Shown here in pieces: positions 11,387 through 45,482 of a stretch of 64,000 bases of DNA. The notes under the pieces are model-generated. The model had not been told where the DNA came from, did not search any database, and worked only from the letters and a program-made list of their open reading frames with translations. The position numbers and the translations under genes were made by a program. This DNA is from an uncultured Gemmatimonadota bacterium (lineage in GTDB: Bacteria; JAAXHH01): positions 2,464,001-2,528,000 of the forward strand of contig OX638340.1 of assembly GCA_951812955.1 (NCBI GenBank), given 5' to 3'. Position 1 is the stretch's first letter. Each line of letters starts with the position of its first letter.

Positions 11387-12172
11387 ATGATGACACGTTT
11401 TAAAAACATGAATTGCGTCGTCCTTGCGGCGCTTTGCTGCCTGCTCGGCGTGGCGCTGTGGACGAATCGCGGCGCCGGTGATTCGGGCCACGACCTCTTC
11501 CTGCGCAACGACTTCACCTTTGGCCGGGTAGTATACCAGAATTTCGGGGGCTTCTACCGGGGTTTCGGTTTCGGGCGGTGGTCGGTGGATTTCCCGTCTG
11601 CGGATTCCAACGTGATCCGCGCCCTGCGGGCCACCACTTCTCTCAAGATCAACGAACCGCAATCCGTGGAACTTACCGATCCCGAACTGTTCGATATTCC
11701 CTTTCTGTATATCCTGGAAGTCGGATCCCTGCAGTTCAGTCCGGAGGAAGTGGACGCCCTGCGGGAGTACCTATTGCGCGGGGGGTTCCTTCTGGTGGAC
11801 GACTTCCACGGTTCGCGGCAGTGGGCGGTCTGGGAATCGCAGATCAAGCGGGTGTTTCCCGGGCGGGACATCGAGGAGATACCGGCCGACCACCCGATCC
11901 TGCACTGTTACTATGATTTCGACACCTACCCCCTGGTGCCCGGGATCGCGGCGCTGTGGAACATGAACCACTACGAAAGGGACGGCGCCCTGTACGGCCA
12001 CAGGCTGCGGGGGATATTCGACGACGGCGGAAGGCTCATGGTGCTGATGAACTGGAACGCAGACCTGGGCGACGGCTGGGAACACGCGGCCGATCCCGGG
12101 TATCCGCGGGAGTTTTCCGTAACCGCCTACCGCCTGGCCGTCAATTACGCCATCTACGCGATGACGCATTGA
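11387..12172 (+). CDS. DUF4159 domain protein
   Basis: signal-like N-terminus and DUF4159-type segments (FGGFYRGFGFGRW, PFLYILEVGSLQFSPEEVDALREYLLRGGFLLVDD). Confidence 0.65.
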   Translation: MMTRFKNMNCVVLAALCCLLGVALWTNRGAGDSGHDLFLRNDFTFGRVVYQNFGGFYRGFGFGRWSVDFPSADSNVIRALRATTSLKINEPQSVELTDPELFDIPFLYILEVGSLQFSPEEVDALREYLLRGGFLLVDDFHGSRQWAVWESQIKRVFPGRDIEEIPADHPILHCYYDFDTYPLVPGIAALWNMNHYERDGALYGHRLRGIFDDGGRLMVLMNWNADLGDGWEHAADPGYPREFSVTAYRLAVNYAIYAMTH

Positions 12173-12236
12173 TCCAGCCGGCAGGGATCTCCCCGGACCC
12201 GTCGAGTACCCGCGGTCTCATTCTTTATTCGTTGAA

Positions 12237-13289
12237 TCAATCGGCGGAGGACAGCTGCCTGAGCGCGGAGGTCATCACTTCGACGGACCGGAGATACTCG
12301 TCCAGTACGATGTGCTCGTCCGGCGTATGGTCCAGTCTTGAGTCTCCCGGACCGTAGGCCGCGATCGGGCACCCCCATGCCGGGCCGAGGATGCACATGT
12401 CCGACGTGCCCGTCTTCTTCTTGAAGGTGGGCCGGCCCCCAGCCTGCCGGATGGCCCGCAACAGCGAACGGATCATCGGGGTGTTCTTCGGCGCGACGAT
12501 TCCTACCAGCCGCCGGTCGCATTCGATCTCCGCGGGACCCGCCTGTTCCTTCACGAAGCCGATCAGGCCGTCTATGTCGTATTCCGGCGGCACGCGCATC
12601 GAGAAATAGGCGTCCACGCCTTCGGCCAATCCATGGTCGTAGGTATTGAATCGCCGCATTTCGAGCCGGGGAGACTCGAATTCGCTTTCGGTGGCGTGGG
12701 ATGCTGCGCGGGACCGCAGAGCGTTGTAAAGATCTACGGCCCGGTCCCCCGCCCGCCGATGGTCGCCGGCGTGATGGGCGTTGGGCTGTTCGAGCCGGTA
12801 GTCGAAACCTACGAAACCCTTGTACCCGATGGTGATGCTGTCCCAGCCGCTCGGCTCGCCGATGAATACGTAGCCCGGCCGCATGCGGTCCACCAGGTGG
12901 AAGGCGCCCTTCGACGTGGGGCACTCCTCTTCCACGGCGCCGACCAGGGTGATCCGGCCGTTTTCGAGTTCCGTCAAACGGGAAAGGGCGGCGGCGAAGG
13001 CGGCCAGTGGGCCCTTGGCGTCCACGGCGCCCCGGCCGTATAGGCGGCCGCTTTCTTCGCGTATCGGAACGACGCCCGGTACGGTGTCGATATGCCCGAC
13101 CAGTGCGATATGCGGTTCGCCGCGGCCGACTTCGCCCACGGCGTTTCCCGCCTCGTCCACGTGGGCACGGATCCCCCTCCGTTCCATCCACTCGATCAGG
13201 TAGGAGACCGCCTCGCTCTCCTGCGTTGAGGGACTGAACCGCTCGATAAGGCCCCGCAGCAGCGCGACGTCGTCGCGGGCGTCGCTCAT
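12237..13289 (-). CDS. lysK: [LysW]-lysine/ornithine hydrolase LysK (M20 peptidase, ArgE-like); start at the internal Met MSDARDD
   Basis: M20 motifs HIDTVPG, GAVDAKG; the ORF-track N-terminal extension overlaps lysJ; the chosen start makes an ATGA overlap with the lysJ stop at 13286-13289. Confidence 0.75.
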   Translation of the reverse strand: MSDARDDVALLRGLIERFSPSTQESEAVSYLIEWMERRGIRAHVDEAGNAVGEVGRGEPHIALVGHIDTVPGVVPIREESGRLYGRGAVDAKGPLAAFAAALSRLTELENGRITLVGAVEEECPTSKGAFHLVDRMRPGYVFIGEPSGWDSITIGYKGFVGFDYRLEQPNAHHAGDHRRAGDRAVDLYNALRSRAASHATESEFESPRLEMRRFNTYDHGLAEGVDAYFSMRVPPEYDIDGLIGFVKEQAGPAEIECDRRLVGIVAPKNTPMIRSLLRAIRQAGGRPTFKKKTGTSDMCILGPAWGCPIAAYGPGDSRLDHTPDEHIVLDEYLRSVEVMTSALRQLSSAD

Positions 13290-14554
13290 TTCCCCTCCCG
13301 GGCCGCGGTTCGGCCGCGGCCGGCGCGACGCCGATCCCGGCTGTTTCCTTCCCCGCGTCCCGGGCCGGACCGGCCGGACGACGGGTTTTCTCCAAGGGCG
13401 TCCAGTGCTTCGTGCGTTGCCGCCACAACCTGGTCGATTTCCTCCGTGGAGATCGACAGCGGCGGCAGGAACCGCAGCACGGTATTGCCCGCGGGCAGGG
13501 CTAGTACACCCCGTTCCATGAGCCCGCGCAGTACGGGCGTGACCCGGCTCTTCAGCTCGACGCCGATGATCAGGCCCATGCCCCGTATCTCCCGTACGGC
13601 GGGGTGGGCCAACGCCGCGAGGCCTTCCCGGAAATACCCGCCGGCCTCCCTGGCGTTCTCGACAAGGCCTTCCTCGTCCAGCACACGCAGAGTCGCCAGC
13701 CCCGCCGCGCAGATCACCGGGCTGCCGCCGAAGGTGTTTCCGTGGGACATGGACGGGACGCCCTGGACCGCGTCCCCGCAGAGCGCCGCGCCGACGGGGA
13801 GCCCTCCGGCCATGGCCTTGGCCAGGCAGAGGATGTCCGGCCGTATACCGTGGTGCTCGCAGGCAAACATGGCGCCCGTTCTGCCGAACCCGGTCTGCAC
13901 CTCGTCCACGATGAACAAAGCGCCCCGTTCCCTGCAAAGGGCCTCTACCCGCTTCAGGTACCCACCGTCGGCCACACGCACGCCGCCCTCTCCCTGCACG
14001 ACCTCGAGGATGACCGCGGCGGTCTCCTCGCCGATGGCTTCTTCCATGGCGGCGGGATCATTGTATCTGACGTGGGAGAATCCGGGCACGAGGGGTTCAA
14101 AGGGGGCGCGATACTTGGGGTTCCACGTCGCGCTCAATGCGCCGAAGGTGCGTCCGTGGAATCCGCGCTGGGCCGCGATCACGCCGGTTTTTCCCGTGAC
14201 GGCCCGGGCGAATTTCAACGCCGCTTCCACCGCCTCCGTACCGGAGTTGCACAGGAACAGCCGGTCGAGCCCCGCCGGGGCCGCCTCGACCAGGGCCGCG
14301 CCCAGTTCCGCACGCACATCGTTGTAGAAGGAGTCCGGGCATATCGTGAGGCGGTTCACCTGCCGCGTGACCGCTTCGGCCACGGCCGGGTGGCTGTGGC
14401 CAATGTTGGCCGTGCCGATCCCGCCGATGCAGTCGATGTATTCCTTACCGGCGGCGTCCCATACACGCGTGCCGCGGCCGCGGACGATCACCGCGTCGCG
14501 TTTCGGCAGGATGCCCATGGAAACGCCATTTTCCATTGTCTGGTAGTCTGTCAT
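13286..14554 (-). CDS. lysJ: acetylornithine/[LysW]-aminoadipate-semialdehyde aminotransferase (class III PLP)
   Basis: GIRPDILCLAKAMAGGLPVGA PLP-lysine region; ArgD/LysJ-like throughout. Confidence 0.85.
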   Translation of the reverse strand: MTDYQTMENGVSMGILPKRDAVIVRGRGTRVWDAAGKEYIDCIGGIGTANIGHSHPAVAEAVTRQVNRLTICPDSFYNDVRAELGAALVEAAPAGLDRLFLCNSGTEAVEAALKFARAVTGKTGVIAAQRGFHGRTFGALSATWNPKYRAPFEPLVPGFSHVRYNDPAAMEEAIGEETAAVILEVVQGEGGVRVADGGYLKRVEALCRERGALFIVDEVQTGFGRTGAMFACEHHGIRPDILCLAKAMAGGLPVGAALCGDAVQGVPSMSHGNTFGGSPVICAAGLATLRVLDEEGLVENAREAGGYFREGLAALAHPAVREIRGMGLIIGVELKSRVTPVLRGLMERGVLALPAGNTVLRFLPPLSISTEEIDQVVAATHEALDALGENPSSGRSGPGRGEGNSRDRRRAGRGRTAAREGK

Positions 14555-14576
14555 GTTCCCCGTACTCCTGTTTTCG

Positions 14577-15374
14577 TTACCCGATTACCGTGCCCTGTCC
14601 ACGCAGCGCAGCCGTGACGGGTCCGGGTATCCTCCCGTCGCCCAGGATCACCTTTCCCACCCCGACTTCCAGCGCCTCTTTCGCGCCGAGCAGCTTCTTC
14701 TTCATGCGGTCCCGGGCGTGGGTCGCGATCGCCTCGTCTATGTCCTCACGGGCGAGGCGGGGGATCAGCGTGTCTTCGTCCTCGGCGTCCTCGAGGAATC
14801 CAGGCGTGTTGGAAAGGATGACCAGCCTGTCCGCCCCGAGGGCGTCGGCGATCACGGCGGCCGCCCGGTCGCCGTCCACGTTGATGATCTCCCCCTCGTA
14901 GCTGATGGCCGGCGGCGTGATGACCGGCAGGTAACCCTGGTCCAGCAATGAGGTCAGCAGCGGTACGTTCGCCTTCTCGACCCGGCCTGTGTAATCGTTT
15001 CTCAGGACCTTCTTCCGGCCGTCCTCCACGATCCGGAGGGTGGGTTTCCGCCTGCCCTCGAGGAGGCGACCGTCGACCCCGCTCAGTCCTACGGCGTTGG
15101 CGCCGAGCTGCTGCAGTTTCTCCACGATGCGCTTGTTTCGCTTGCCGCAATACACCATGTTGAAGATATCCAGCGTCTCCGGATCGGTATATCGGCTCGT
15201 GTACCCGGAGGGCGACGTGACCATGCGGGGCGGCTTGCCCAGTTGTGTCGATACGGTGTTCAATTCGTCGGAACCGCCGTGCACCAGCACCAGCGGTTCG
15301 GTCTGCCGCGCGATGTCCTCCAGTACGTAGTCCAGGTTGATGCCCCTGCTGCCTCCGGTCTTCACCACGATCAT
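14577..15374 (-). CDS. lysZ: [LysW]-aminoadipate/glutamate kinase (amino-acid kinase family)
   Basis: MIVVKTGGS N-terminus and AAK fold; ATGA overlap with the hisS stop. Confidence 0.8.
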   Translation of the reverse strand: MIVVKTGGSRGINLDYVLEDIARQTEPLVLVHGGSDELNTVSTQLGKPPRMVTSPSGYTSRYTDPETLDIFNMVYCGKRNKRIVEKLQQLGANAVGLSGVDGRLLEGRRKPTLRIVEDGRKKVLRNDYTGRVEKANVPLLTSLLDQGYLPVITPPAISYEGEIINVDGDRAAAVIADALGADRLVILSNTPGFLEDAEDEDTLIPRLAREDIDEAIATHARDRMKKKLLGAKEALEVGVGKVILGDGRIPGPVTAALRGQGTVIG

Positions 15375-16636
15375 GCCGTGCCGCCTCCCTTAACCGCGTC
15401 CAGCACCTCCCACCTGGGAAGGGCCGTCTGCGTACTGTCCGCCATGCGCCGTACCATGACGACGCCGTTTTTCACCTCTTCTTCGCCGATGATCAGGGTG
15501 TATGCGGCACCGATCCGGTCGGCCTGCTTCATCTGGGCCTTCAGGCTGCGGTCCTCCCACAGGGCCGCCGCGCCCACGCCGGCCGAGCGAAGTTCCTGTG
15601 CCAGGACCACGGCGGCGTCCTTGGCCTCGGCGCCGAGATAGGCAACGAACACGGCAGGTTTCGGCACTTCCGGGGGTTCGATCCCCTCCTGCTTCATCGT
15701 GAGGATGATGCGCTCTATGCCCGACGCGAAGCCGATAGCCGGCGTTTCGGGTCCGCCCACCATTCCGATCAGTCCGTCGTACCGCCCGCCCCCGCACACC
15801 GCGTTCTGCGCGCCGATGCCCTCTGCCCAGACCTCGAACACCGTCTTCGTATAGTAGTCGAGTCCCCGCACCATGCGGTGGTTGACCTCGTAAGGGCGGC
15901 CCAGGGCGTCCAGGTACGACCTCAGCTGGACGAAGTGGTCATTGCATGCACCGCACAGGGATTTCGCGATCCGCGGCGCCCCCTCCGCTATCTTCCCGCA
16001 GGATTCCCGCTTGCAATCCAGAAGCCGCAGCGGGTTCTCGCCATAGCGGCGCCGGCAATCATCGCAGATCCCGTCCAGGTGCTGTTCGTACCAAGCCTTC
16101 AGCGTAGCGATGTATCCAGGCCGGCAAGCGGGACACCCCGTACTGTTCACCTGGAAGGACAGCCCCTTGATGCCGACGGCTTCGTAGATCTGCCAGGCGA
16201 CCTGCATCACCTCGAGGTCGATGGCCGGGTCCTGGCTGCCCAGTACCTCCACGTCGACCTGGTAGAACTGGCGGTATCTTCCCGCCTGCGGACGTTCGTA
16301 CCGGAAAGCCGGACCGATCGTATAGAGTCTCAGGGGCTGGGGCCTGCCATGGAGCTTGCGCTCGGCGTAGGCTCGGCAGATCCCCGCCGTGAATTCGGGC
16401 CGCAGCGTCATGCGCTCGTCACTCCGGTCGCGGAAGGTGTACATCTCCTTCTCCACGATGTCCGTGGTCTCGCCGACGCCCCGCTCGAAGAGGCCGGTCT
16501 GCTCGAAGACGGGCACGTCGATCCGCTCGTAGCCGTACAGTTCGCAGACCTGCCGGGTCATCTCGGTCACGAACCGCCAGTAGGCCTGGTCCTCCGGCAG
16601 GATGTCGTAGGTGCCTCTCGGTGCCTGGAATTTCAT
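15371..16636 (-). CDS. hisS: histidine--tRNA ligase
   Basis: MKFQAPRGTYDILPED..., class II aaRS motifs; start at the internal Met with AGGAAG upstream. Confidence 0.9.
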   Translation of the reverse strand: MKFQAPRGTYDILPEDQAYWRFVTEMTRQVCELYGYERIDVPVFEQTGLFERGVGETTDIVEKEMYTFRDRSDERMTLRPEFTAGICRAYAERKLHGRPQPLRLYTIGPAFRYERPQAGRYRQFYQVDVEVLGSQDPAIDLEVMQVAWQIYEAVGIKGLSFQVNSTGCPACRPGYIATLKAWYEQHLDGICDDCRRRYGENPLRLLDCKRESCGKIAEGAPRIAKSLCGACNDHFVQLRSYLDALGRPYEVNHRMVRGLDYYTKTVFEVWAEGIGAQNAVCGGGRYDGLIGMVGGPETPAIGFASGIERIILTMKQEGIEPPEVPKPAVFVAYLGAEAKDAAVVLAQELRSAGVGAAALWEDRSLKAQMKQADRIGAAYTLIIGEEEVKNGVVMVRRMADSTQTALPRWEVLDAVKGGGTA

Positions 16637-16668
16637 TTTGGTCTTCCTATACCGGTCTATACCGGTTC

Positions 16669-17712
16669 CTATACCGGATGCAGGCCCGGAAACTCGAGGC
16701 CCGTCCGTTCGTCCCACCCGTACATGATGTTGAGCGCCTGAACGGCCTGGCCGGCCGCGCCCTTGACCAGGTTGTCCAGCGCCCCCATGACCACGACGCG
16801 GTCGCTGTGCTCGTCCCGTTCGAACCCGACGTCGCAGAAGTTGGTGCCCGACAGGAACTTCGGATCGGGATAGCGGAACACGCCCTGCCGCTCCTTGATG
16901 ATGCGGATGAAGGGCTCCCGTCCATAGGCCTCCCGGTAGATACTCCAGATTTCCCGTTCTGACAGGCCGTCGTTCACGAAGGCGTGGGTCGTCATCAGGA
17001 TGCCGCGCACCAGTTCGATGGCCGTCGCGGAGAAATGGACCTGCGGCGCCTGTCCCCCGAAAGTCAGTTCCTGCACGATCTCTGCCGTATGGCGATGACC
17101 CGTAGGCTTGAAAGAGCGCACCGCGCCGCTTCGGTCGGGGTGGTGGGTGGACCGGTCGGCCCGGTTACCGGCAGCGGAGGACCCGATCTTGCCCTCCATG
17201 TAGAGACGCGAGGGGTCCACCGCGCCAGCCCGCACCAGGGGCGCCAGCGACAGGATCGCCGTGGCGGCCAGGCAACCGGTGCACGCGACGTGCTCGGCGT
17301 CCCGTATCTCGTCACGGTACAGTTCGGCCAGGCCGTACACGAAGCGGTCCAGCATCTCCGGGTGCGCGTGCTCGTGCCCGTACCACGTGGGATAGTCCGC
17401 CGCGTTCCGCAGGCGGAAGTCCGCGCTCAGGTCGATGATGCGGCCGCCCAGGCCCGAAAAGGCGTCCCATCGTTTCATGGCCTCCCCGTGGGGCAGGCAC
17501 AGGCACAATACGTCGCAGGGCTCCAGGTCGGCCATGGCGCTGAATTTCAGGTCCGTGACTCTGCGGAGGTTGGGATGGGCGCGTCCGACGGGCTTGCCGG
17601 CCTGCGATTCCGACGTCACCTGATGGATTTCTATTTCGGGGTGGAAGAGCAGCAGCCGAAGCAGTTCGCCGCCGCCGTACCCGGACGCTCCTGCGATCGA
17701 CACCTTGATCAT
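16669..17712 (-). CDS. lysY: [LysW]-aminoadipyl/glutamyl-phosphate reductase (ArgC/LysY)
   Basis: [24 protein letters not shown]-binding N-terminus; catalytic Cys region VACTGCLA. Confidence 0.85.
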
Positions 17713-18536
17713 GATCGGGCCACCTTTACCAGGTAGTCTATGATGCGCCCGGGAATGTCCACACCCGTTGGCCGGACGCTGTTACGGAATTCCATGGTGT
17801 AGTTCACCTCGTTGACCAGGATCCCCTCGGGAGATTCAAGCAGGTCGACCGCCACCACGCCGCCGCCCACCGCTTCCGCCGCGCGGGAGGACAGCGTCCC
17901 CACGTCCCCGTCGATGGGACAGTCCGCGGTCGTTCCCCCCAGGGCTGTGTTGGTCTTCCAGTGATCCGAATAGCGGTAGACGGCGCAGATGGTTTCGCCG
18001 TCGACCACGAAGGACCGGATATCCCGCCCGGGCTTCTCCACGTACTCCTGGATATAGAACACGGAGTGGTGATAGGACCCCAGGACCTCCTTGTGCTCCA
18101 GCACCGCTTCCGCCGCGTGGCGGTCGTTGATGCGGGCGATCAGCCGTCCCCACGATCCGATGGGCGGCTTGAGTACGACGGGGTAACCCATGGTTTCCAT
18201 CACCTCCAGCGCCGCTTCCGCCGTGAAGGCCACGCGCGCCTTCGGCGTCGGTACGCCGTGATCCACCAGCGCCATGGTCGTCAGGAACTTGTTCCCGCAC
18301 ACGCGGGCCACGTCGTAGGTGTTAACCGTCCTGATACCGCTGGCGTTCAGCATCTTGAGCGAGTAGAGCGCCCTGGAGTGGTTGACGCACCGCTCCAGGA
18401 TGACGTCGTGGTCGTACCGGTGGTTCTCCAGGTCGAAGATGATGCGCCGGTCGTCCATCCGGTCGAAGGCGACGCCCCGTTTCGCAGCCGCCTCGAAGAG
18501 CATCTTCTGTTCCGTGGATACAATGGAAAGTAGCAT
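17709..18536 (-). CDS. lysX: RimK-type ATP-grasp ligase, LysX/ArgX family (start at [10 protein letters not shown]; the ORF-track 510-aa form is an artefactual extension)
   Basis: ATP-grasp RimK-like sequence; 8-nt gap to the upstream paralog stop. Confidence 0.8.
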
Positions 18537-18544
18537 GCCGATCT

Positions 18545-19399
18545 TCACGATGCCCTGCCTCCCTTCGTCACCGTATCCGCTACGTAGTCCATGATTTTGC
18601 CCGGTATATTGACCCCGGTGGCGTCCGACGCGTCGGAAAGGCCGGACGGCGGGCCCATCTCCTGCACGTACCAGGCGTCCTTCGTGCGGACCATGTCCAC
18701 CACCGCGACGCCGCCGCCAATGGCCTCGACGGCAGAGACCGCCAGGCCGTTCAACTCCTCCGTTACGGGTTCGTTCTCCATCAGGCCGCCGGCGGCGATG
18801 GTCCCGATCCAGTGATGGGTCAGCACCGACACGGCGGCCACCGTCTCGCCACCCACCACGTACGCCCGTATGTCGTGACCAGGCGCATCGATATGTTTCT
18901 GCATGAAGAAGATGGAATGGTGATAAGCGCCGAGTATGCGTTTGTGCTCCAGGACCGTCGCCGCCGTATACTTGTCTCCTATGCGGGAAACGAGCTGGTC
19001 CTCGGGGCCCTCCGCGGGTCTCAATACGACCGGGTATCCCATGTCTTCCATTGCCTTGAGCGCCGAGTCCGGCGTATAGGCCAGGCGCATGTCCGGAACC
19101 GGGACGCCCCTCTCCCGCAACGCCAGGGTCGTCAGCAGCCGGTTTCCGTAGGTCTCCACCACGGACTGCCGATTCACCGTGGGTATGCCCCAGTGGTCGA
19201 ACACGGAGAGCGCGTATACGGCCCGGTGGTGATCGACGCACCGTTCCAGGACCACGTCCAGGTCCATGTGCCGGCGGTCGAGTTCGAAGACCTGCCGGGA
19301 ATTGTCGATCGTCGTCACGTCGAAACCGCGCAGACCCGCTTCGGCGATCAGCCGCTTTTCGTCCTTTCGGATCCGAGACAGCACAATGCCCATTTCCAT
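18545..19399 (-). CDS. second RimK-type ATP-grasp ligase, LysX/ArgX-family paralog
   Basis: 284 aa, colinear with the downstream paralog and visibly similar to it (for example GYPVVL[KR]P, HHS[VI]F); amino-acid identity not counted. Confidence 0.8.
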
Positions 19400-19430
19400 G
19401 GTTCCCGCACCTTCTTCCTGGTCATGCCAT

Positions 19431-19481
19431 ACAAAAAAAGGAGCCGGCCTCTTCGCTCAATCGGAAGAGGAACCTGGCTCC
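19431..19481 (-). terminator. intrinsic terminator between lysW and the lysX paralogs
   Basis: minus-strand RNA GGAGCCAGGUUCCUCUUC-loop-GAAGAGGCCGGCUCC followed by UUUUUUUGU. Confidence 0.6.
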
Positions 19482-19641
19482 TGTCAGTTCCCTTGGTCCG
19501 GTTATGCCCCGTAGGGGATCAACACGGACCGCGATGAGCGAACGAACGCAAATCACAATCATGGTATCCATGTTTATGTTTCATTCGTTTATTCATCGCC
19601 GTTTCCTGTTCTCGTTTGAACCCGCAATGCGGGTGAGGGGC

Positions 19642-19806
19642 CTATTCTCCCCAGTCTTCTTCTTCTTCCGGCGCCAACTCCAATTCCAGCGGACTGACGC
19701 TGATTACCTCGAGCTCCGCGCCGCATTCTTCACACTCCAGGATTTCGCCTTCAACGACATCATCGTCCACGTTGACAGCGGCGCCACACTCCGGGCAGGT
19801 TCCCAT
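19642..19806 (-). CDS. lysW: amino-group carrier protein LysW (54 aa; start at MGTCPECG)
   Basis: MGTCPECGAAVNV...ECEECGAELEVISVSPLELELAPEEEEDWGE, a zinc-ribbon with the characteristic C-terminal EDWGE. Confidence 0.85.
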   Translation of the reverse strand: MGTCPECGAAVNVDDDVVEGEILECEECGAELEVISVSPLELELAPEEEEDWGE

Positions 19807-19906
19807 GATATCCCCCGAATTACCTGGACATAGCCCAGTACTGAAACCCATTCCAGGGTCCTTTTACCCCATCGGGAAGGGCCCCGGTCCATGCTGGAAC
19901 GGTCGA

Positions 19907-19934
19907 AATATATGGCGCGGTTAAACCGTGTCAA
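19907..19934 (-). promoter_or_regulatory. candidate sigma70 promoter for lysW (TTGACA, 16 nt, TATATT)
   Basis: hexamers read on the minus strand about 95 nt upstream of the lysW start. Confidence 0.4.
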
Positions 19935-19940
19935 GCGCTT

Positions 19941-22439
19941 TTATGAAGGATTTTCGTCCGTCTCCCCGGTGGATTCGTCCGCTGCGGCCGACGCCGATTC
20001 GTCATCTTCCTCGCCGGGCGTAATCCTGGACACGTCGATCACCCGGTCCCCCTCGTCGAGGTTGATGAGCCGGACACCCTGGGTATTCCGGCCGATGGGT
20101 CGCAGGTCGCGGACAGGCAGGCGTATGATGAGGCCTTTCGTGGTGATAATCATCAGTTCGTCTTCGTCGGAGACGGCGTGAATCGACACGACGGGACCGT
20201 TGCGTTCGCTGGTGCGTATGTTGCTCACGCCCTTGCTGTGCCGGCGGGTCAGCCGGTAGCTCGCGATGTCCGTCCGCTTACCGTAGCCGTTTTCCGTCAC
20301 GGAAAGCAGCGTGGTGTCCCGTCCGGACGCCAGCATGCCCACGACCCGGTCGTCTTCGCCGAGGCGAATGCCACGCACTCCCTGTGCGCCGCGGCCCATC
20401 GTCCGGACATCGCTCTCGTGAAAACGGACGGCCTGGCCATTCCGGCTGGCGATGACGATGTCGTTGCCTCCATCGGTAAGCAGGGCCTCGATGAGGGCGT
20501 CGCCCTCGAGGATGTTCAGTGCAACGATGCCGTTCCGGCGGGGATTCCCATAAGCGGAAAGAACGGTCTTCTTCACGAGACCACCCCGCGTAACCATCAT
20601 GATGTAGTGGTCGTCGTCGAACGTCCTGATCGGCAGGAAGGCCGCAATACTCTCGCCCTGGCCGAGCTGCAGCAGGTTGACCACGGCCTTGCCACGGGCC
20701 GTGCGTCCGGCTTCGGGGATCTCCCACACCTTGAGCCAGTAACACTTACCTCGGTTCGTGAAGAACAGGATATAGGAATGGGTCGAGGCGGAGAAGAGGT
20801 GCTCCACGAAGTCCTCTTCACGGGTCTTCATGCCGGTGATCCCCTTGCCGCCGCGGTTCTGGCTGCGATAGGTGTCCATGGGCAGGCGCTTGACGTAGCC
20901 GGCGTGGGAGATGGTGATGACCATTTCCTCGTCGGCGATCAGGTCCTCGATGCTGAGATCGCCTTCGATGTCGATCAACTCGGTCCGTCTTTCATCGCCG
21001 TAGCGTTCCTTCAGGTCGAGCATCTCTTCCTTGATGATCTGCATCCGGCGATCCAGGCGTGAGAGGATATCCCGGAAATCGGCGATCCGGGCGACCAGTT
21101 CGTTGTATTCTTCCTCGAGCTTGTCCCTTTCCAGTCCGGTCAGGCGCTGCAGGCGCATGTCCAGGATGGCCTCGACCTGGGCACGGGACAGTCCGAACTC
21201 GTCCACCAGGATCTCCATGGCCTCCTCGCCGGTACGCGACCCGCGGAGGATTTCGATCACGCGGTCCACGTTGTCCAGCGCGATGCGCAGACCTTCCACG
21301 ATGTGGGCCCGTTGCTCGGCCTTCTCGAGGTCGAAGGTGGTCCGGCGCACCAGCACCTCGTGACGGTGGTCGATGAAGTGCTGAATGCATTCCTTGATGT
21401 TCAGGACGCGGGGACGTCCGTCCACGAGCGCCAGCATGGTGACGCCGATGGTGGTCTCGAGCGACGTCATCTTGAAGAGGTGGTTCAGTACGATTGTGCC
21501 CGGGATATCCCGCCGCACGTCGATGGCGATGCGCAGACCCGACCGGTCGGACTCGTCCCGTATATCGGTAATGCCCAGTATCTGCTTTTCACGGACGAGG
21601 TCGGCGATCTTCTCGATCAGGCTGGCCTTGTTGACCTTGTACGGGATTTCCGTGATGACGATGGTTTCCTTCTCGCTTTGCTCATGAAGCTCGATCTCCG
21701 TGCGGGCGCGCACCTTGATCTTGCCGCGGCCGGTGTGGAAATACTCTTTAATCGCGTTGCGGCCGTATATGATCGCGCCGGTGGCAAGATCGGGACCCTG
21801 GATGTGTCCGGCGATCTCATCGATCGTGATTTCCGGGTTCTCGATCACCGCCACCATCCCATCCACCACCTCGCTGAGGTTATGGGAAGGCAGGTTGGAT
21901 GCCATGCCCACGCCAATACCGAGCGACCCGTTGCAAAGCAGGTTGGGGAACTTGCCCGGAAGCACCGTCGGCTCGTCTTTCGACTCGTCGTAGTTGGGCA
22001 TGAAATCGACGGTGTTCTTGTCGATATCCTCCATCATCTCGATGGCCAGGCGGGACATCCTCGATTCGGTGTACCGCATGGCGCCCGGGGGATCGCCGTC
22101 TATGGAACCGAAATTCCCCTGTCCGAAGACCATGGGGTAACGCATGCTGAACGGCTGGGCCATCCGCGCGAGGGTGTCGTATACGGCCAGGTCTCCGTGG
22201 GGATGGTAATCACCGATCGTCTGGCCGACGATCTTGGCGCATTTCCGCGTGGGCCGTCCCGGTGTGAGGTTCAGGTCGCGCATCGCCACGAGTATGCGTC
22301 GCTGGGACGGTTTGAACCCGTCGCGGACGTCCGGAATCGCCCGTGACAGATTCACACTCATGGAGAAGTCGAGATAGGAACTCTTCATCTCGTCTTCGAT
22401 GAAGATGGGCTGAATATTGTCGTGTTGTTCTACCGCCAT
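19941..22439 (-). CDS. gyrA: DNA gyrase subunit A
   Basis: 832 aa; active-site region AMRYTE; GyrA box. Confidence 0.95.
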   Translation of the reverse strand: MAVEQHDNIQPIFIEDEMKSSYLDFSMSVNLSRAIPDVRDGFKPSQRRILVAMRDLNLTPGRPTRKCAKIVGQTIGDYHPHGDLAVYDTLARMAQPFSMRYPMVFGQGNFGSIDGDPPGAMRYTESRMSRLAIEMMEDIDKNTVDFMPNYDESKDEPTVLPGKFPNLLCNGSLGIGVGMASNLPSHNLSEVVDGMVAVIENPEITIDEIAGHIQGPDLATGAIIYGRNAIKEYFHTGRGKIKVRARTEIELHEQSEKETIVITEIPYKVNKASLIEKIADLVREKQILGITDIRDESDRSGLRIAIDVRRDIPGTIVLNHLFKMTSLETTIGVTMLALVDGRPRVLNIKECIQHFIDHRHEVLVRRTTFDLEKAEQRAHIVEGLRIALDNVDRVIEILRGSRTGEEAMEILVDEFGLSRAQVEAILDMRLQRLTGLERDKLEEEYNELVARIADFRDILSRLDRRMQIIKEEMLDLKERYGDERRTELIDIEGDLSIEDLIADEEMVITISHAGYVKRLPMDTYRSQNRGGKGITGMKTREEDFVEHLFSASTHSYILFFTNRGKCYWLKVWEIPEAGRTARGKAVVNLLQLGQGESIAAFLPIRTFDDDHYIMMVTRGGLVKKTVLSAYGNPRRNGIVALNILEGDALIEALLTDGGNDIVIASRNGQAVRFHESDVRTMGRGAQGVRGIRLGEDDRVVGMLASGRDTTLLSVTENGYGKRTDIASYRLTRRHSKGVSNIRTSERNGPVVSIHAVSDEDELMIITTKGLIIRLPVRDLRPIGRNTQGVRLINLDEGDRVIDVSRITPGEEDDESASAAADESTGETDENPS

Positions 22440-28180: not shown

Positions 28181-29542
<1,362 letters not shown>

Positions 29543-36762: not shown

Positions 36763-38004
36763 TCAGTAGTTACGATCAGTAAACAACCCGCTGTAACCAC
36801 CGAGCAACATGACCTCTATTTCCTGGCCTGTCTTCATGTATTCCTGGTCTTCATGGCTGACGGCCAATCCATCCGCAATGGACATGGACCTTAGAATGCC
36901 TGAGCCCTGCGCACCGGTACGCGAAGCGAAATAAATGTCGCCTCGCTTACGGAGGGTAACGCGTATGAACTGCTTTCGTCCAAGCGATTTAGTGATGTCT
37001 TCCAACAATCGGGCCTTGATTGTGGGACGATAGATGTGGGTGTAGCCTTGCATCTTGAGCAGGGCGGGTCGCATGAACAGTTCGAAAGTGACCATGGAAG
37101 CTACGGGGTTGCCCGGCAGGCCGAATACTATGGTATCTTCGATCGCGCCGAAGGCGAGTGGTCGCCCCGGCGTCATGGATACCTTCCAGAATGCCATGGA
37201 GGTGCCGACGGCCTCGAGGGCGGCCTTGACGTAGTCGTATTCTCCCACGGAAACCCCGCCCGAAGTAATGATCGCGTCCGCCACGAGTCCGTCGCGCAGT
37301 ACCCGTTCAAGCTCTTCCTGTGTATCCGGACAGATACCCAAACGCAAGGGGATGCCGCCGGCATCCGCCACCAGTGCGGAAAGGGCGTATCCGTTGCTGT
37401 CCACGATCTTGCCGTCTTCGAGCGGTTCATCCACGTCGACGATCTCATCGCCGGTGGATAGCACGGCGACCCTGGGGCGGCGGTAGACCGACACGTGGGA
37501 GCGATTGGTAGAGGCGAACAGACCGACCTCGGCCGGCCGGATCAGCATCCCGGAAGGGATGATGAGGTCTCCTTCGCGGATGTCTTCGCCTATCCTGCGG
37601 AGATCCGTTCCGGATTCCACGGGCTGGAGAATGCGCACGCGCCGCTCATCGATCCGTAATGTGCGCTCGGCGCGAACGATGGTATCCGCGCCATCGGGCA
37701 CCGGCGCGCCGGTCATGATATGTATGGCCTGTCCCGGTCCGACGGTGTGTTTCGCCACGTATCCGGCGGGCAGATCCTCAACGATCTCCAGTTCCGCCGG
37801 GGAATCCGGCGACGCGGGCACCGTATCCGCGGCCCGGACCGCGTAGCCGTCCATGGCCGAATTGTCCCAGGGTGGCTGGTTCCTCGTGGCGTGGACGTCT
37901 TCGGCAAGCACCCGGCCGAGGCCCGACGCGATATCGACTCTCTCCGCGCCGAGGGGCCGGATCCGGTTCAGTATGGCATCGCGGGCTTCGATCACTGAGA
38001 TCAT
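36763..38004 (-). CDS. moeA: molybdopterin molybdotransferase MoeA
   Basis: MoeA N, MoCF-biosynthesis and C-terminal domains. Confidence 0.85.
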   Translation of the reverse strand: MISVIEARDAILNRIRPLGAERVDIASGLGRVLAEDVHATRNQPPWDNSAMDGYAVRAADTVPASPDSPAELEIVEDLPAGYVAKHTVGPGQAIHIMTGAPVPDGADTIVRAERTLRIDERRVRILQPVESGTDLRRIGEDIREGDLIIPSGMLIRPAEVGLFASTNRSHVSVYRRPRVAVLSTGDEIVDVDEPLEDGKIVDSNGYALSALVADAGGIPLRLGICPDTQEELERVLRDGLVADAIITSGGVSVGEYDYVKAALEAVGTSMAFWKVSMTPGRPLAFGAIEDTIVFGLPGNPVASMVTFELFMRPALLKMQGYTHIYRPTIKARLLEDITKSLGRKQFIRVTLRKRGDIYFASRTGAQGSGILRSMSIADGLAVSHEDQEYMKTGQEIEVMLLGGYSGLFTDRNY

Positions 38005-38014
38005 CGCGGATTCC

Positions 38015-39277
38015 TCACGATACGGCCTGGTCAGCCGCGCCCATCAGCAGCACGGAAACCTCGGCTCCTCGTGAAATGGACGTCACGCCCGTTTCCACGA
38101 TGACGAGCCCGTTGGTCCCGGTCATGGAACTGAGCATGCCCGAGCCCTGGCCCGCGACTGTCGAGGCGTGAAACCGGCCGCCGGTACAGGAGATCCTGGC
38201 GCGGAGATAGTGCCGCCGGTCCCCGCCTGCCGTCAGGTCGTTCTCGAGTTCCGCCTGAACCGTAGGCAAGCGCCAGTCATGGGGGCCATAGCCCATCATC
38301 TTGCGCATGGCAGGCCGTGCGAAAAGGAGGAAAGAGACCATGCACGAAACGGGATTTCCCGGCAGGCCGAAAAACGGTTTCCCTTGAAGCAGCCCATAGG
38401 CCAGGGGCTTCCCTGGCTTCATCTTCACCCGCCAGAACCTCATATCCGCGCCGAGGTCTTCCAGTACTTTCTTCACGTAATCGTAGTCACCTACGGATAC
38501 GCCGCCGGTCGAAAGGACCACATCCGCGCTCAGGGCAGACCGTATGGCCGCTGCGATCTCTGACTCGCTGTCCCCGGCGATGCCCAGGTTGACGGGCATG
38601 CCGTTGCATTCCCGCACGAGCGCGGACAGGGAATAGCTGTTGCTGTTGACGATCTTTCCCGGTTCGAGCCGTTCGTCGATTTCGACCACCTCGTCGCCCG
38701 TGGAAAGCACGGCCACGACCGGGCGCCTGCGAACCGAGACCTGGGACCTTTGGAAGGCCGCCAGGAGACCGATCTCGCCGGGGCCGATTTCAGCGCCGTC
38801 GAACAGGACTCGCTGCCCCTGCCTTACGTCTTCACCCCGGTAGCGTACGTTCTGGCCCGGCCTGACCGCCTTGAGCACCTCGACACCTTCCTCGTTCTGC
38901 CTGGTGTTCTCCACCATGACGACGGCGTCTGCGCCTTCGGGGAGGAAGGCGCCGGTCATGATGCGCGAAGCTTTGCCGGGACCTATCCGTACGGCGGGTA
39001 CGGTTCCGGCCGGAATCTCTTCGAGGACCTCGAGATGGCAGGGGGTATCCGCTGATGACCCGGTCGTGTCCGCGGCCCATACGGCATAGCCGTCGACGGA
39101 AGAATTGTCGTGGGGCGGCACGTCGAACCTCGGCGCAACGTCCTCGGCGAGCACACGGCCCTGACTCTCGGACAGTGGTACGCGTTCGATTCCCGAGACG
39201 GAGACCGAGTCCAGCACGATCTCCTGGGCTTCCTCCACCGTAAGCATCCGATCCGCAGTCATGAATCCATCCTTCAA
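38015..39277 (-). CDS. molybdopterin molybdotransferase MoeA paralog
   Basis: second full-length MoeA-family protein 10 nt upstream of the first. Confidence 0.85.
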   Translation of the reverse strand: MKDGFMTADRMLTVEEAQEIVLDSVSVSGIERVPLSESQGRVLAEDVAPRFDVPPHDNSSVDGYAVWAADTTGSSADTPCHLEVLEEIPAGTVPAVRIGPGKASRIMTGAFLPEGADAVVMVENTRQNEEGVEVLKAVRPGQNVRYRGEDVRQGQRVLFDGAEIGPGEIGLLAAFQRSQVSVRRRPVVAVLSTGDEVVEIDERLEPGKIVNSNSYSLSALVRECNGMPVNLGIAGDSESEIAAAIRSALSADVVLSTGGVSVGDYDYVKKVLEDLGADMRFWRVKMKPGKPLAYGLLQGKPFFGLPGNPVSCMVSFLLFARPAMRKMMGYGPHDWRLPTVQAELENDLTAGGDRRHYLRARISCTGGRFHASTVAGQGSGMLSSMTGTNGLVIVETGVTSISRGAEVSVLLMGAADQAVS

Positions 39278-39292
39278 GGTCTGCAGTACGAC

Positions 39293-41002
39293 TTACCTGC
39301 CGCTGGTTCTCGCCATGAACGCTTCGATGTCTTCGATCGACCTGGGTACGCCGTCCGACAGTACCCGGTGTCCGTCTTCGGTCACCAGCACGTCGTCTTC
39401 GATGCGCACGCCGATATTCCTGTATCGCTCGAAAGCGGGGCGGATCGCCTCGATCAGCGCGTTATTCCGGGGGGTGTCTTCAAGGTTTTCGAGCGTGTCC
39501 TCCCGGATGTAGATGCCGGGTTCCACCGTGATAACCATGCCTGGCCTGAAGGGCATGTCCCTTCCGCCGACGTCATGGACGTCCAGGCCCAGCCAGTGGC
39601 TGGTGCCGTGCATGAACCACATGCGATACTGGTTTCCCGACGCATCTTTAATCAGGCCCAGCTTCAGGAGCCCGTCCGCGACCGCCTTCCGCGCCGTTTC
39701 ATGCACCCTTCGTATGGTCATGCCGGGCCGGACCGCGGCCATGGCGCGGGCATGGGCATCGAGAACGACATCGTACACTTCACGCTGCGCTTCCGTGAAG
39801 ACCCCGCCGACCGGAAACGTCCGGGTGACGTCGGCCGTGTAGTTTCCAACGGCCGCGCCGATATCGGCCAGGACGAGCTCGCCCTTCGTGATTTCACGGT
39901 TGTTCTCTTCGTAGTGTAACGTCGTCGCGTTGGGACCCGAGGCCACGATGGATGGAAATCCCCAGCGCGCGCCGTGACCGCGATAGGTTGCAAGAATGAT
40001 GCCGTCGAGTACGGATTCGTTCAGCGGTTCCGCGGTGCTGGCCGCCTTGCGCATGATGGCCCGTTGCGCCAGGCAGGTAATGTCGATGGCCCGTTGCAGC
40101 CGCCGGAGTTCCCAGGGCGACTTGACGACGCGCTGGTCCCGGAAGAGGCCGGACGCCAACCGCACCTGTACGGCGGGAAATCGAGCGGCTTCCGAGGCGA
40201 ATTGCACGGCCTGGGGATACCGGGTCCCGAACCTGGACTGCGCGTCGGCCAGCAACCAGACTTGCACGGGTTTACCGCGCTCGATGGATTCGGACGTGAC
40301 CTGGTAATCACGCGCGTCGCCGGAGGGACGTTTTTCATACGTGGATCCGCCGAGGATGGCCTCGACAAAGGCTTCGAATTCTTCAATCGGCCATACATGC
40401 TCGATCCCGGTCATGCGCCGGGCTTCATCTACGCCGATCATGTGGCCGGTCCAGATTTCCCGCGCGGGGTCGCGCCTGGGGAGAAAGAGGATTTCCTTCT
40501 GGCTTCTATTATCGGGCAGCAGTACGAGCGCGGCGCCGGGCTGGCTGATGCCGGTCAGGTAGAACAGGTTGCTTTCCTGGCGGTAGGGATAGTTGACGTC
40601 GTTGCTGAATACCTTGGGTTCCGTCCCGAACAGGATCATGATCCCGCTGCCCATACCCTTGAGTATCCGGGCCCGCCGTTCCGCCAGTTCCTCCGCCGGC
40701 GCCGGTCCGGCGTCCTCCGTGATCGACACGGTCTCCAGCTGGGCTGCGGCCGGGGAAGCCGGCGCTGCTCCATAGAGGACCGCGATCCAGAGTGCGGCGG
40801 AAAAGGCCGCGCGAAAAGCGGTGGAAAAGGCCATCCGCATGGAAAAGACCGCGCGAAAAGCGGCAGAAGAGGCCATCCAGGTCGTAGCGGAAAAGTCCGC
40901 GCACCACGCGGTGGCGGCCGTGAAATAACCCGTCGCACTTCGTCGCTTCATGGGTCGTCGTCCTGTGGAATCGTTTGTGTCGTACGCGTCGTATGTGTTC
41001 AA
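39293..41002 (-). CDS. pepP: Xaa-Pro aminopeptidase (M24B, PepP-like) with a long repeat-containing N-terminal leader (alternative start MKRRSATGY at 40951)
   Basis: M24 metal ligands (HGTSHWLGLDVHD...); AMP_N domain; ATGA overlap with the argJ stop if the start is at 41002. Confidence 0.75.
   Translation of the reverse strand: MNTYDAYDTNDSTGRRPMKRRSATGYFTAATAWCADFSATTWMASSAAFRAVFSMRMAFSTAFRAAFSAALWIAVLYGAAPASPAAAQLETVSITEDAGPAPAEELAERRARILKGMGSGIMILFGTEPKVFSNDVNYPYRQESNLFYLTGISQPGAALVLLPDNRSQKEILFLPRRDPAREIWTGHMIGVDEARRMTGIEHVWPIEEFEAFVEAILGGSTYEKRPSGDARDYQVTSESIERGKPVQVWLLADAQSRFGTRYPQAVQFASEAARFPAVQVRLASGLFRDQRVVKSPWELRRLQRAIDITCLAQRAIMRKAASTAEPLNESVLDGIILATYRGHGARWGFPSIVASGPNATTLHYEENNREITKGELVLADIGAAVGNYTADVTRTFPVGGVFTEAQREVYDVVLDAHARAMAAVRPGMTIRRVHETARKAVADGLLKLGLIKDASGNQYRMWFMHGTSHWLGLDVHDVGGRDMPFRPGMVITVEPGIYIREDTLENLEDTPRNNALIEAIRPAFERYRNIGVRIEDDVLVTEDGHRVLSDGVPRSIEDIEAFMARTSGR
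40799..40919. repeat. 42-nt (2x21-nt) tandem repeat, about 2.9 copies, encoding AFRAAFS-type heptads in the pepP N-terminus
   Basis: ggaaaaggccgcgcgaaaagcggtggaaaaggccatccgcat followed by ggaaaagaccgcgcgaaaagcggcagaagaggccatccaggt and a partial third unit. Confidence 0.55.
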
Positions 41003-42216
41003 GTGGTGTATTCCGCGTTCACGGTCACGTATTCATGGGACATGTCGCAGGTCCATACCGTGGCCGCGCCGTCTCCCAGTTTGAGATCGATTTCGACCGG
41101 AATTTCCCCGGCGGAGAGCGCTTCCCGCATGGCCGGTTCGTCGAGGGTGAGCCCCCGGCCATCCTGCGTCAGCTGGTGACCGCACAGGAACAGGTCGATG
41201 GCGTCGGGGTCCGTTTCGGCGTCCGCGTAGCCGACGGCGCAGAGGATCCTGCCCCAGTTCGGATCGTGGCCGTAAATGGCTGTCTTCACGAGCGCGGAGT
41301 TCGCCACGCTCATGCCGATCGTCCGGGCGTCCTCGTCCGTCCGGGCTCCCTGCACGCGTATCTCCACGAGTTTCGTCGCCCCTTCGCCGTCCCGCGCGAT
41401 CTTCTTGGCCAGGTCGGTGCAGACGTGCTCCAGCGCTTCGGCGAACCGCTCGTAGGCGTCCCCGTCGGGCCGCGTGATTACCGGGTTTTCCGCGGCGCCG
41501 TTGGCCAGGATGAACACGGTGTCGTTCGTGCTCATGTCGCCGTCGACGGTGATGCAGTTGAAGGACTTCCCGGCGGCCCGGCGCAGGGCCGACTGGAGGG
41601 CCCCCGGCGCGATGGCGGCGTCCGTCGTGATCAACCCGATCATCGTGGCCATGTTCGGGCAGATCATGCCCGCGCCCTTGGCGATTCCGCCGACCACCAC
41701 GGCCGACCCTTCGAGATCGCACCACACCGCGCAGGATTTGGGGACCGTGTCAGTCGTCATGATTGAATCGGCGGCGTCCCGGTCCGAACCCAGCCGTTGC
41801 CGGTCCAGCGCTTCCCGGATGCCGTCGCGGATTATGTCCATGGGCAGGGGACGTCCGATCACCCCGGTGGAGGCGACGAGGATCTCGCTTGCGGGCACGG
41901 ACAGACCGCCGGCGACCAGGCCGGCCATCTCCCGGGCGTCCGCCATGCCGGCCTCCCCGTTGCACGCGTTCGCGTTGCCGCTGTTTGCCACTACGGCCCG
42001 CGCCATGCCGGTCTGCAGATGGTCCCTGGACAGGATCACCGGCGCGGCCTGCACCCGGTTCGTGGTAAATACGCCCGCCGCGGAGGCGGTACCGCCCGCG
42101 TCGATCAAAACCAGGTCCTTGCGGCTGCCCTTCGGACTGTTGATGCCGCAACTCGCTGTGTTGGCCAGGAATCCCTTCGGCGCCAGCACGCCCCCGTCTA
42201 CCGTTTGCATAGTCAA
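40999..42216 (-). CDS. argJ: bifunctional glutamate N-acetyltransferase / amino-acid acetyltransferase ArgJ
   Basis: ArgJ family throughout; autoprocessing region present; C-terminus VNAEYTT. Confidence 0.9.
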
Positions 42217-45200: not shown

Positions 45201-45482
45201 CGTCTGCCCACCCAGCGTAGGCAACAGTACGTCGGGCCGCTCGCGCCGGATGATCTTTTCTACGTATTCCGCGGTGATGGGCTCGACGTAGGTCCGGTCC
45301 GCCATGTCCGGGTCCGTCATGATCGTGGCCGGATTGCTGTTGATCAGCACGACCCGGTAGCCCTCTTCCCGGAGCGCCCGGCAGGCCTGGGTGCCGGAAT
45401 AGTCGAATTCGCAGGCCTGTCCGATTACGATCGGACCGGAGCCGATGATCAGGATGGATTCGATGTCGGTGCGTTTAGGCAA
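42213..45482 (-). CDS. carB: carbamoyl-phosphate synthase large subunit
   Basis: 1089 aa; duplicated ATP-grasp halves plus an MGS-like domain. Confidence 0.95.

Follow-up and report, generated by a model that had tools for sequence, protein, structure and literature searches.

The 64,000-nt window analysed here, positions 2,464,001 to 2,528,000 of contig OX638340.1 from an uncultured Gemmatimonadota bacterium, carries on its minus strand (12237-19806, in window coordinates) an eight-gene cluster built around the amino-group carrier protein LysW, as delimited by the listing of open reading frames (ORFs), their translation and NCBIfam scans. An earlier, sequence-only reading had described this cluster as complete, tightly packed and close to the replication origin of a high-GC bacterium, and these points were confirmed. 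All eight genes it named were recovered with the same limits, and the GC content across the cluster is 0.60-0.67. Four junctions are 4-nt overlaps (ATGA at ligB/lysY, hisS/lysZ and lysJ/lysK; GTGA at ligA/ligB), and dnaA (28181-29542), dnaN, recF, dciA, gyrB and gyrA lie upstream of it on the same strand, a near-origin setting. The genes are, in order of transcription:

lysW, 19806-19642, minus strand: carrier protein of 54 aa with a zinc ribbon (C4/C7/C25/C28) and the C-terminal end EDWGE; TIGR01206, 66 bits (cutoff 53).
Ligase A (ligA), 19399-18545, minus strand: RimK-family protein of 284 aa; LysX_arch, 236 bits, below the cutoff of 276.
Ligase B (ligB, LysX), 18548-17709, minus strand: 279 aa with a GTG start; LysX_arch (TIGR02144), 338 bits, above the cutoff of 276.
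lysY, 17712-16669, minus strand: putative [LysW]-aminoadipate-6-phosphate reductase of the ArgC family; TIGR01850, 388 bits, above cutoff.
hisS, 16636-15371, minus strand: full-length histidine--tRNA ligase with its anticodon-binding domain; TIGR00442, 492 bits (cutoff 287).
lysZ, 15374-14577, minus strand: [LysW]-aminoadipate kinase; NF010659, 388 bits (cutoff 223).
lysJ, 14554-13286, minus strand: class III aminotransferase of the ArgD/LysJ family; TIGR00707, 445 bits (cutoff 410).
lysK, 13289-12237, minus strand: [LysW]-lysine hydrolase; NF003367, 397 bits (cutoff 363).

A protein identical to this LysW is on record with the Pfam domain Zn_ribbon_LysW, and 20 relatives all share its EDWGE end. 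The lysZ product also scores above the cutoff of the bifunctional kinase model NF010662 (212 bits vs 194), that of lysJ lies below the cutoff of the narrow LysJ_Th_th model (451 bits vs 700), and the name lysY, rather than argC, is given from context alone.

A scan of species-representative genomes returned 20 loci with a ligase A 85-100% identical to that of the window, all on metagenome-assembled genomes (MAGs) labelled Gemmatimonadetes, Candidatus Latescibacterota or plain 'bacterium'. Metagenome look-ups added a protein identical to ligase A on a 2.25 Mb contig, and further relatives down to 58% identity. The order lysW, gap, ligA, ligB, lysY, hisS, lysZ, lysJ, lysK was conserved throughout, in the 20 loci from genomes as in over 10 contigs from metagenomes, and is thus not a chance arrangement; the clusters of the relatives likewise lie downstream of gyrB-gyrA.

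The gap between lysW and ligase A comprises 242 nt (19641-19400). The features found in it, and the promoter that precedes lysW, are:

Promoter, 19934-19907, minus strand: sigma-70 type, TTGACA-N16-TATATT, matching the consensus at 11 of 12 positions, upstream of lysW.
Short GC hairpin, 19620-19634, minus strand: ACCCGCAUUGCGGGU, directly past the lysW stop; kept by the majority of relatives, whose stem sequences differ.
Leader ORF, 19596-19519, minus strand: MNKRMKHKHGYHDCDLRSFAHRGPC, 25 codons and a stop.
Hairpin H1 (regions 1:2), 19534-19596, minus strand: codons 3-10 paired against codons 12-19, plus an outer AUGA/UCAU stem; minimum free energy (MFE) of -19.5 kcal/mol.
Hairpin H2, 19495-19530, minus strand: spans the leader stop codon; -19.1 kcal/mol.
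Candidate antiterminator, 19452-19542, minus strand: UUCGCUCAUCG (19542-19532, leader codons 19-22) paired with CGAUUGAGCGAA (19463-19452, in the loop and upper stem of the terminator).
Intrinsic terminator, 19433-19482, minus strand: GGAGCC...GGCUCC stem-loop (19482-19440) of -23.4 kcal/mol, followed by U7 (19439-19433).

In a consensus scan of both strands from 12000 to 20100, the site at 19934-19907 was the sole promoter-like sequence, and the scan gave no second promoter in the gap ahead of ligase A. Both hexamers are invariant and the spacer is variable in 25/25 relatives, where the distance to lysW is 86-131 nt. Given this single promoter, and the 33 nt that separate the T-run from the ligase A start, the seven genes after the terminator would be expressed solely via read-through. 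The 5' untranslated region of lysW (~95 nt; 19807-19906, minus strand) has a strong GGGGG Shine-Dalgarno motif and a hairpin that is kept in relatives (GGCCTTCC-CGGAAGGGTGAAAGGACC type), while the short hairpin past the lysW stop may act in the stability or processing of a lysW-only transcript.

The leader ORF begins ATG AAT AAA CGA ATG AAA CAT AAA CAT GGA TAC CAT (MNKRMKHKH...), ends with TGA, and is preceded by a Shine-Dalgarno-like AGGAAA at about 19607-19602. It contains three Lys codons, four His codons (three of them among the first 12) and three Arg codons (one among the first 12), and its Lys/Arg/His regulatory codons 3-12 correspond to 19590-19561. Minor codons are used, AAA accounting for 25% of Lys, CAT for 28% of His and CGA for 6% of Arg in the 12,776 codons of the window that served as reference. 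The same 25-codon ORF is found in 20/20 genome loci (M[SN]KR[MIV]KHKH[GE]xH...). In these 20 sequences codons 1-12 are nucleotide-invariant, the neighbouring genes having a dS of 0.4-0.6; the position of the stop is fixed while its type varies (TGA/TAG/TAA), and synonymous changes occur at Arg22 and Pro24. Complete copies are also present on metagenome contigs L030, L032, L036, L043 and L039, and a further one (L037) is truncated where its contig stops. In a second subgroup (L033, L038, L040, L041, L042) the nucleotide sequence is another one, again with 25 codons, MNRRxKFK[HPQ]KH.... Arg4, Lys6, Lys8 and the stop position are constant in every full-length copy of both subgroups (~30 loci).

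The RNA stretch that begins with the leader ORF and ends with the U-run folds at -65.6 kcal/mol (z = -5.2), a value that 0/200 shuffles equalled. Among 20 relatives, 93-99% of the cells compared are paired in H1 and 94.6% in the terminator; for the antiterminator duplex (-14.7 kcal/mol) the share in relatives is 83%. Hairpin H2 is the sole helix with compensatory changes, which affect four pairs. The candidate antiterminator encloses H2 together with a GGGAAC/GUUCC hairpin (19494-19465) that holds the 5' arm of the terminator. When truncated transcripts were folded with and without masking of the first 42 nt, mimicking a stalled ribosome, the antiterminator was the MFE structure of transcripts ending before the 3' arm of the terminator, in the window as well as in L007, L009, L010 and L012. 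Among relatives the terminator loop does not vary in sequence, a constancy that a plain terminator would not usually show and that fits a pairing role; the loop is complementary to leader codons 19-22. In the subgroup of the window, the predicted alternative pairings have the right geometry for stalling at the regulatory codons to result in read-through. The intrinsic terminator reported after lysW by the sequence-only reading is real (hairpin and T7, 19482-19433), although bulges and a long loop hid it from a simple consensus scan; it is probably not a plain terminator but, on the best reading, the terminator arm of a candidate Lys/His leader-peptide attenuator. Searches with Rfam 15 gave no match at the gathering score in the window, and at E<=10 nothing relevant in 19380-19960 or in L033, with the Lysine riboswitch, the T-box and the His, Thr, Leu and Trp leaders among the families. 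Upstream of carB-argJ, elsewhere in the window, no Arg leader was found, just a short ORF without an Arg run.

The two ligases, described from the sequence alone as being of RimK type, both belong to the LysX family, but they do not form a LysX/ArgX pair. The specificity motif of this family, at TtLysX positions 182/192/203/258-259, reads F-I-T-NS in LysX, I-Y-V-GF in ArgX and Y-I-T-NA in bifunctional enzymes (Shi et al. 2025, PMC12998189). Ligase B has the motif F-V-T-NS, which is of the LysX type, and its ATP-grasp, nucleotide and Mg residues are all intact. Compared with Thermus LysX (3vpd), ligase B scores 301 bits and is 54% identical to TtLysX, vs 193 bits for ligase A; for both ligases, ArgX (3vpb) ranks lowest among the LysX-family matches in the Protein Data Bank (PDB). 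Of the two, only ligase B can be classed as a canonical LysX of the aminoadipate type, a [LysW]--L-2-aminoadipate ligase.

Ligase A, which is 42% identical to ligase B, carries the motif Y-V-I-DA, none of the three published types, and its clade can be written as [YF]-x-I-[DEQ]A. Residues that are invariant in LysX, ArgX, TkLysX and RimK are altered (VVLKP to VVLRP, GSWGR to GPEDQ, QEY to QKH, TNT to GTI and NEVN to QEMG), and these changes include K129R, E170K, N202T and N251G. In structures of Pseudomonas RimK the core ADP contacts are K141, E178, I180, F210, S212 and N213 (PMC10092738); the corresponding six residues of ligase A are R, K, I, W, G and T. It keeps, as the Arg of DIR, the residue that binds the acidic C-terminus (RimK R189 / TkLysX R173; PMC10375531). 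The signature GPxxQ / QK / G[HY]D is common to 38/38 clusters of the ligase A clade (58-100% identity), whereas among the other matches listed 82/82 canonical LysX have GSWGR / QE / GRD. The dN/dS of ligase A, 0.09-0.19, indicates purifying selection like that on its neighbours. Its AlphaFold model (pLDDT 85.8; TM 0.90 to 3vpd) is of lowest confidence in and just after the ATP-loop region, and the Pfam domains LysX_preATP_grasp and RimK are on record for it. Sequence and model together point to a discrete, selected paralog clade that appears to have kept the LysX fold while most ATP-contact residues changed, and they make ligase A a candidate non-catalytic or re-purposed partner of LysW/LysX. 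The neighbouring position of ligA and ligB and their overlap (GTGA) suggest that the products form a complex and are not two entry enzymes acting in parallel.

Two other identities were rejected for ligase A: that of an ArgX, by the specificity motif (no I-Y-V-GF) and the PDB ranking, and that of a decaying pseudogene, by the dN/dS and the conserved clade. Clade members P0009 and P0036 carry the source name '[lysine-biosynthesis-protein LysW]--L-2-aminoadipate ligase' despite their altered nucleotide-binding residues; such naming is, from the residues, probably an over-annotation.

Whether the cluster serves lysine, ornithine or both had been left undecided from the sequence; lysine is favoured by our comparison and is the likely product, ornithine being less supported. 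The specificity motif of ligase B is of the same type as that of the LysX of L035 (P0093), a protein encoded beside hcs, aconitase and HICDH genes, and this points to lysine, as do the scores of lysZ and lysK above Lys-specific equivalog cutoffs and the invariant Lys codons of the leader. Both argJ (40999-42216) and carB (42213-45482), which had been noted before, are present in the window as part of a carB-argJ-pepP operon (39293-45482). Co-transcription of argJ with carB implies an N-acetyl route to ornithine, as in Thermus, and so favours lysine for the LysW cluster. Genes for homocitrate synthase (hcs), homoaconitase, HICDH and LysN were not found within the 64-kb window.

The operon would thus encode the second half of alpha-aminoadipate lysine synthesis on LysW, in which ligase B (LysX) would load alpha-aminoadipate onto the C-terminal Glu of LysW, LysZ, LysY and LysJ would convert the bound intermediate, and LysK would release lysine. 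Its regulation can be pictured as follows. Transcription from the promoter at 19934-19907 would yield lysW, after which the polymerase would meet the leader ORF, with its minor AAA, CAU and CGA codons, and then the terminator. With well-charged Lys-tRNA and His-tRNA, the ribosome would reach the leader stop and cover UUCGCUCAUCG, or H1 would re-form and sequester it; in either case the terminator would form and lysW alone would be expressed. Without translation of the leader, H1 would likewise sequester region 2. At low charging of Lys-tRNA or His-tRNA the ribosome would stall at codons 3-12 and open H1, the freed UUCGCUCAUCG would pair with the terminator loop, and the GGGAAC/GUUCC hairpin would take the 5' arm of the terminator. 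The resulting antitermination would allow read-through into ligA-lysX-lysY-hisS-lysZ-lysJ-lysK, with the downstream genes translationally coupled via their ATGA/GTGA overlaps.

We give a probability of roughly two in three to this overall reading, in which a single transcription unit for LysW-dependent lysine synthesis is governed by a leader attenuator and has a non-catalytic partner in ligase A; how the attenuation works, that the product is lysine and what ligase A does are all deduced from sequence and comparison. Several observations weigh against it. The pairings of H1, the antiterminator and the terminator have no covariation support and the shuffle controls were unimpressive, covariation being uninformative here because the paired segments are almost invariant. 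With a duplex of about -15 kcal/mol and one small hairpin, the antiterminator does not reach the stability of the terminator (-23 kcal/mol) and must therefore win kinetically. The second leader subgroup gives less clear-cut alternative folds, and its members L040 and L041 have Pro or Gln in place of one His codon. The Lys/His leader ORF, though expected, is absent from L025, L027, L029 and L045-47, more distant relatives with ligase A 58-64% identical, while their terminator stays, which suggests that constitutive partial read-through is a viable ancestral state. In addition, basal members of the ligase A clade retain Lys129 and the GxxG loop, so that loss of ATP binding is not certain clade-wide.

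The distant relatives with a terminator and no leader ORF, together with the missing covariation, lend some weight to a simpler explanation without amino-acid sensing, in which a leaky terminator would set a high ratio of lysW to the enzymes, the small ORF being incidental to the RNA or coding for a basic protein, and the nucleotide invariance could then stem from an RNA element instead of coding. We nevertheless consider this rather unlikely, as ORF length and stop position are constant despite the change of stop type and the synonymous changes at Arg22 and Pro24, and as the Lys-x-Lys (plus His) core recurs in a subgroup of different nucleotide sequence. The minor codons of the leader, a codon content that mirrors that of the operon (Lys pathway and hisS), the invariant terminator loop complementary to the 3' part of the leader, and the lack of any Rfam family match argue in the same direction. 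For ligase A, the alternative to a non-catalytic partner is an active ATP-grasp enzyme with another chemistry or substrate, which might for instance add residues to the tail of LysW in the manner of RimK, or use a different nucleotide or amino acid. An intact predicted fold (TM 0.90 to LysX), strong purifying selection, the retained D237, E249 and R180, the basal members with K129 and the GxxG loop, and a segment E-x-x-x-P-x-G-L that is nearer to RimK than to LysX are all compatible with activity; the change of 4/6 RimK-defined ADP-contact side chains, including an E-to-K charge reversal universal in the clade, and the loss of the Mg-ligand Asn251 in nearly all members make it unlikely.

A dual system like that of Sulfolobus, in which ligase A would load glutamate as an ArgX-like enzyme and lysine as well as ornithine would come from the shared LysW, LysZ, LysY, LysJ and LysK, would account for two adjacent LysX-family ligases with one LysW, for Arg codon 4 in every full-length leader copy and for the passing of lysZ through the bifunctional kinase model. 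The pocket of ligase A is also nearer to glutamate-accepting types (Y182 and x-A at 258/259 as in bifunctional enzymes; Ile203 resembling Val203 of ArgX), and LysW-Glu is accepted by Thermus LysZ and LysY (PMC12998189). This system is nonetheless improbable for the window: ligase A has neither the ArgX motif I-Y-V-GF nor the residues invariant in LysX, ArgX, TkLysX and RimK (K129R, GPEDQ, E170K, N202T, N251G), and ArgX is the weakest family match of both ligases. The N-acetyl route to ornithine implied by the argJ-carB operon counts against it as well. Actinomycetes use amino-group carrier protein systems for non-proteinogenic amino acids, and a Streptomyces-type cluster for a secondary metabolite, instead of primary lysine, would on that general ground be conceivable; the presence of only five core enzymes without a single tailoring, NRPS or PKS gene in the 64-kb window, the location among housekeeping genes at the origin in a synteny that extends through the whole lineage, and the Lys codons of the leader peptide leave it very little credibility.

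A bolder form of the preferred reading, lysine synthesis under a leader attenuator with ligase A as partner, would see two devices at once: a multivalent attenuator within the operon that responds to the charging of Lys, His and perhaps Arg tRNA, and an ATP-blind LysX paralog that would be the first pseudo-enzyme of a carrier-protein pathway. We hold this combination to be doubtful, although possible. If true, the attenuator would tie an amino-acid pathway to an aminoacyl-tRNA synthetase that is not its cognate one, the carrier protein still being made constitutively, and the paralog, translationally coupled to LysX, would hetero-oligomerise with LysX or chaperone LysW and be needed for loading or feedback control. 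A literature search found no description of a Lys/His leader or of a LysX pseudo-paralog.

In all relatives examined, hisS is flanked by lysY and lysZ, and its presence in the operon matches the His codons of the leader. Histidyl-tRNA synthetase would be co-regulated with the lysine genes, which would account for these codons, and the embedded hisS would be an example of an aminoacyl-tRNA synthetase gene captured by a biosynthetic regulon. At the lysY-hisS junction (16647-16677, minus strand) the final lysY codons and stop (CCGGTATAG) are present in three tandem copies; relatives have one to many copies of a longer unit, with gaps of 87 nt (L007) or 311 nt (L010), and the repeat is a small variable-number repeat. 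The long lysY-hisS gaps of L025 (12747-12957), L027 (12741-12937) and L033 (4122-4309) share a motif, GCGAATGGG ... CCGTTCGTAYCCAT, that forms a possible long hairpin and overlaps small ORFs ending ..[VI]R[TI]H... The gap of L033 gave no Rfam match. This motif may be a separate regulator of hisS that was lost in the lineage of the window.

Other observations concern the rest of the cluster and its surroundings. LysJ ends in an Arg/Gly-rich tail of 35 residues (GENPSSGRSGPGRGEGNSRDRRRAGRGRTAAREGK; 13289-13393, minus strand) that runs into the lysK start; LysJ orthologs differ in length (388-422 aa), the tail thus being variable, and it may result from read-through following the loss of an earlier stop. 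Two full-length moeA paralogs (molybdopterin molybdenumtransferase) are arranged in tandem at 36763-39277 on the minus strand. Between 52000 and 64000 the GC content falls from about 0.62 to 0.49-0.55, and two paralogs of 624 aa with near-identical N-termini (56324-58198 and 58538-60412), ECF-sigma-like by eye alone, are located there; this may be an acquired or fast-evolving region. A tRNA search found no tRNA genes in the 64-kb window.

The statement that LysW is best known from Thermus and archaea holds for the biochemistry, but the genes are widespread in bacterial metagenomes, where LysX-type ligases gave 2408 matches at E<=1e-20, with Acidobacteriota, Terriglobia, Chloroflexi and Dehalococcoidales as source names. 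Since LysX is common in bacterial phyla, a LysW cluster in a bacterium is ordinary rather than surprising, and the cluster of the window is one more bacterial lineage for a known pathway. In L034 (Acidobacteriota) and L035, lysW is followed by a canonical lysX and other lys genes, L035 having hcs, aconitase subunits and an isocitrate/HICDH-type dehydrogenase directly upstream of lysW-lysX-lysK. Both have one ligase only and no hisS, and going by these gene orders the second ligase and hisS are specific to the lineage described here. What appears new in its sequence is the candidate internal Lys/His(/Arg) leader-peptide attenuator, the LysX-fold paralog with a rebuilt nucleotide pocket and the embedded hisS. 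As a possible case of ribosome-mediated attenuation from beyond the classical phyla, the attenuator is a clean candidate, with a mixed leader that matches a mixed operon, and its codons provide sequence-level evidence on the amino acid served by the pathway. Ligase A provides a lead on how carrier-protein pathways recruit non-catalytic partners, and a caution for annotation.

Compared with the LysW pathway of Thermus thermophilus and Deinococcus, the cluster contains all of lysW, lysX, lysZ, lysY, lysJ and lysK, with the zinc ribbon and the EDWGE end of the carrier. It also resembles the Thermus pathway in the specificity-motif type and ATP-grasp residues of ligase B, the Lys-specific NCBIfam equivalogs of lysZ and lysK, and a separate ArgJ. 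It differs in gene order, in the candidate attenuator between lysW and the enzymes, in the extra LysX-fold paralog and the hisS within the operon, and in that the aminoadipate-forming genes are not adjacent. Other bacterial LysW clusters, such as those of L034 and L035, share the succession of lysW and a canonical lysX, and are unlike it in the single ligase and the missing hisS. Two LysX-family ligases with one carrier protein are also found in Sulfolobus (LysX and ArgX), but the second ligase here has Y-V-I-DA instead of I-Y-V-GF and does not have the conserved ATP/Mg residues. A Lys leader peptide has reportedly been described for the Thermus lysine cluster. Unlike known attenuators (E. coli thrL, hisL and pheM-pheST; Thermus; Bacillus), the candidate lies inside the operon, after the carrier gene and not at the 5' end, and in an uncultured lineage labelled Gemmatimonadota/Latescibacterota; for its mixture of Lys and His (and Arg) codons no described example was found. 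Like ribosome-mediated attenuators it has a short ORF rich in codons of the regulated amino acids, exclusive 1:2, 2:3 and 3:4 pairings, which are here predicted, and a U-run, and the geometry of the predicted pairings is that of the trp and thr attenuators. A leader that mixes two or three amino acids has a parallel in E. coli thrL, which mixes Thr and Ile codons. A leader ahead of an aminoacyl-tRNA synthetase gene is likewise familiar from pheM-pheST and from the His leader peptide upstream of the Bacillus hisS paralogs (hisS*/hisZ; Naville and Gautheret, PMC2965389).

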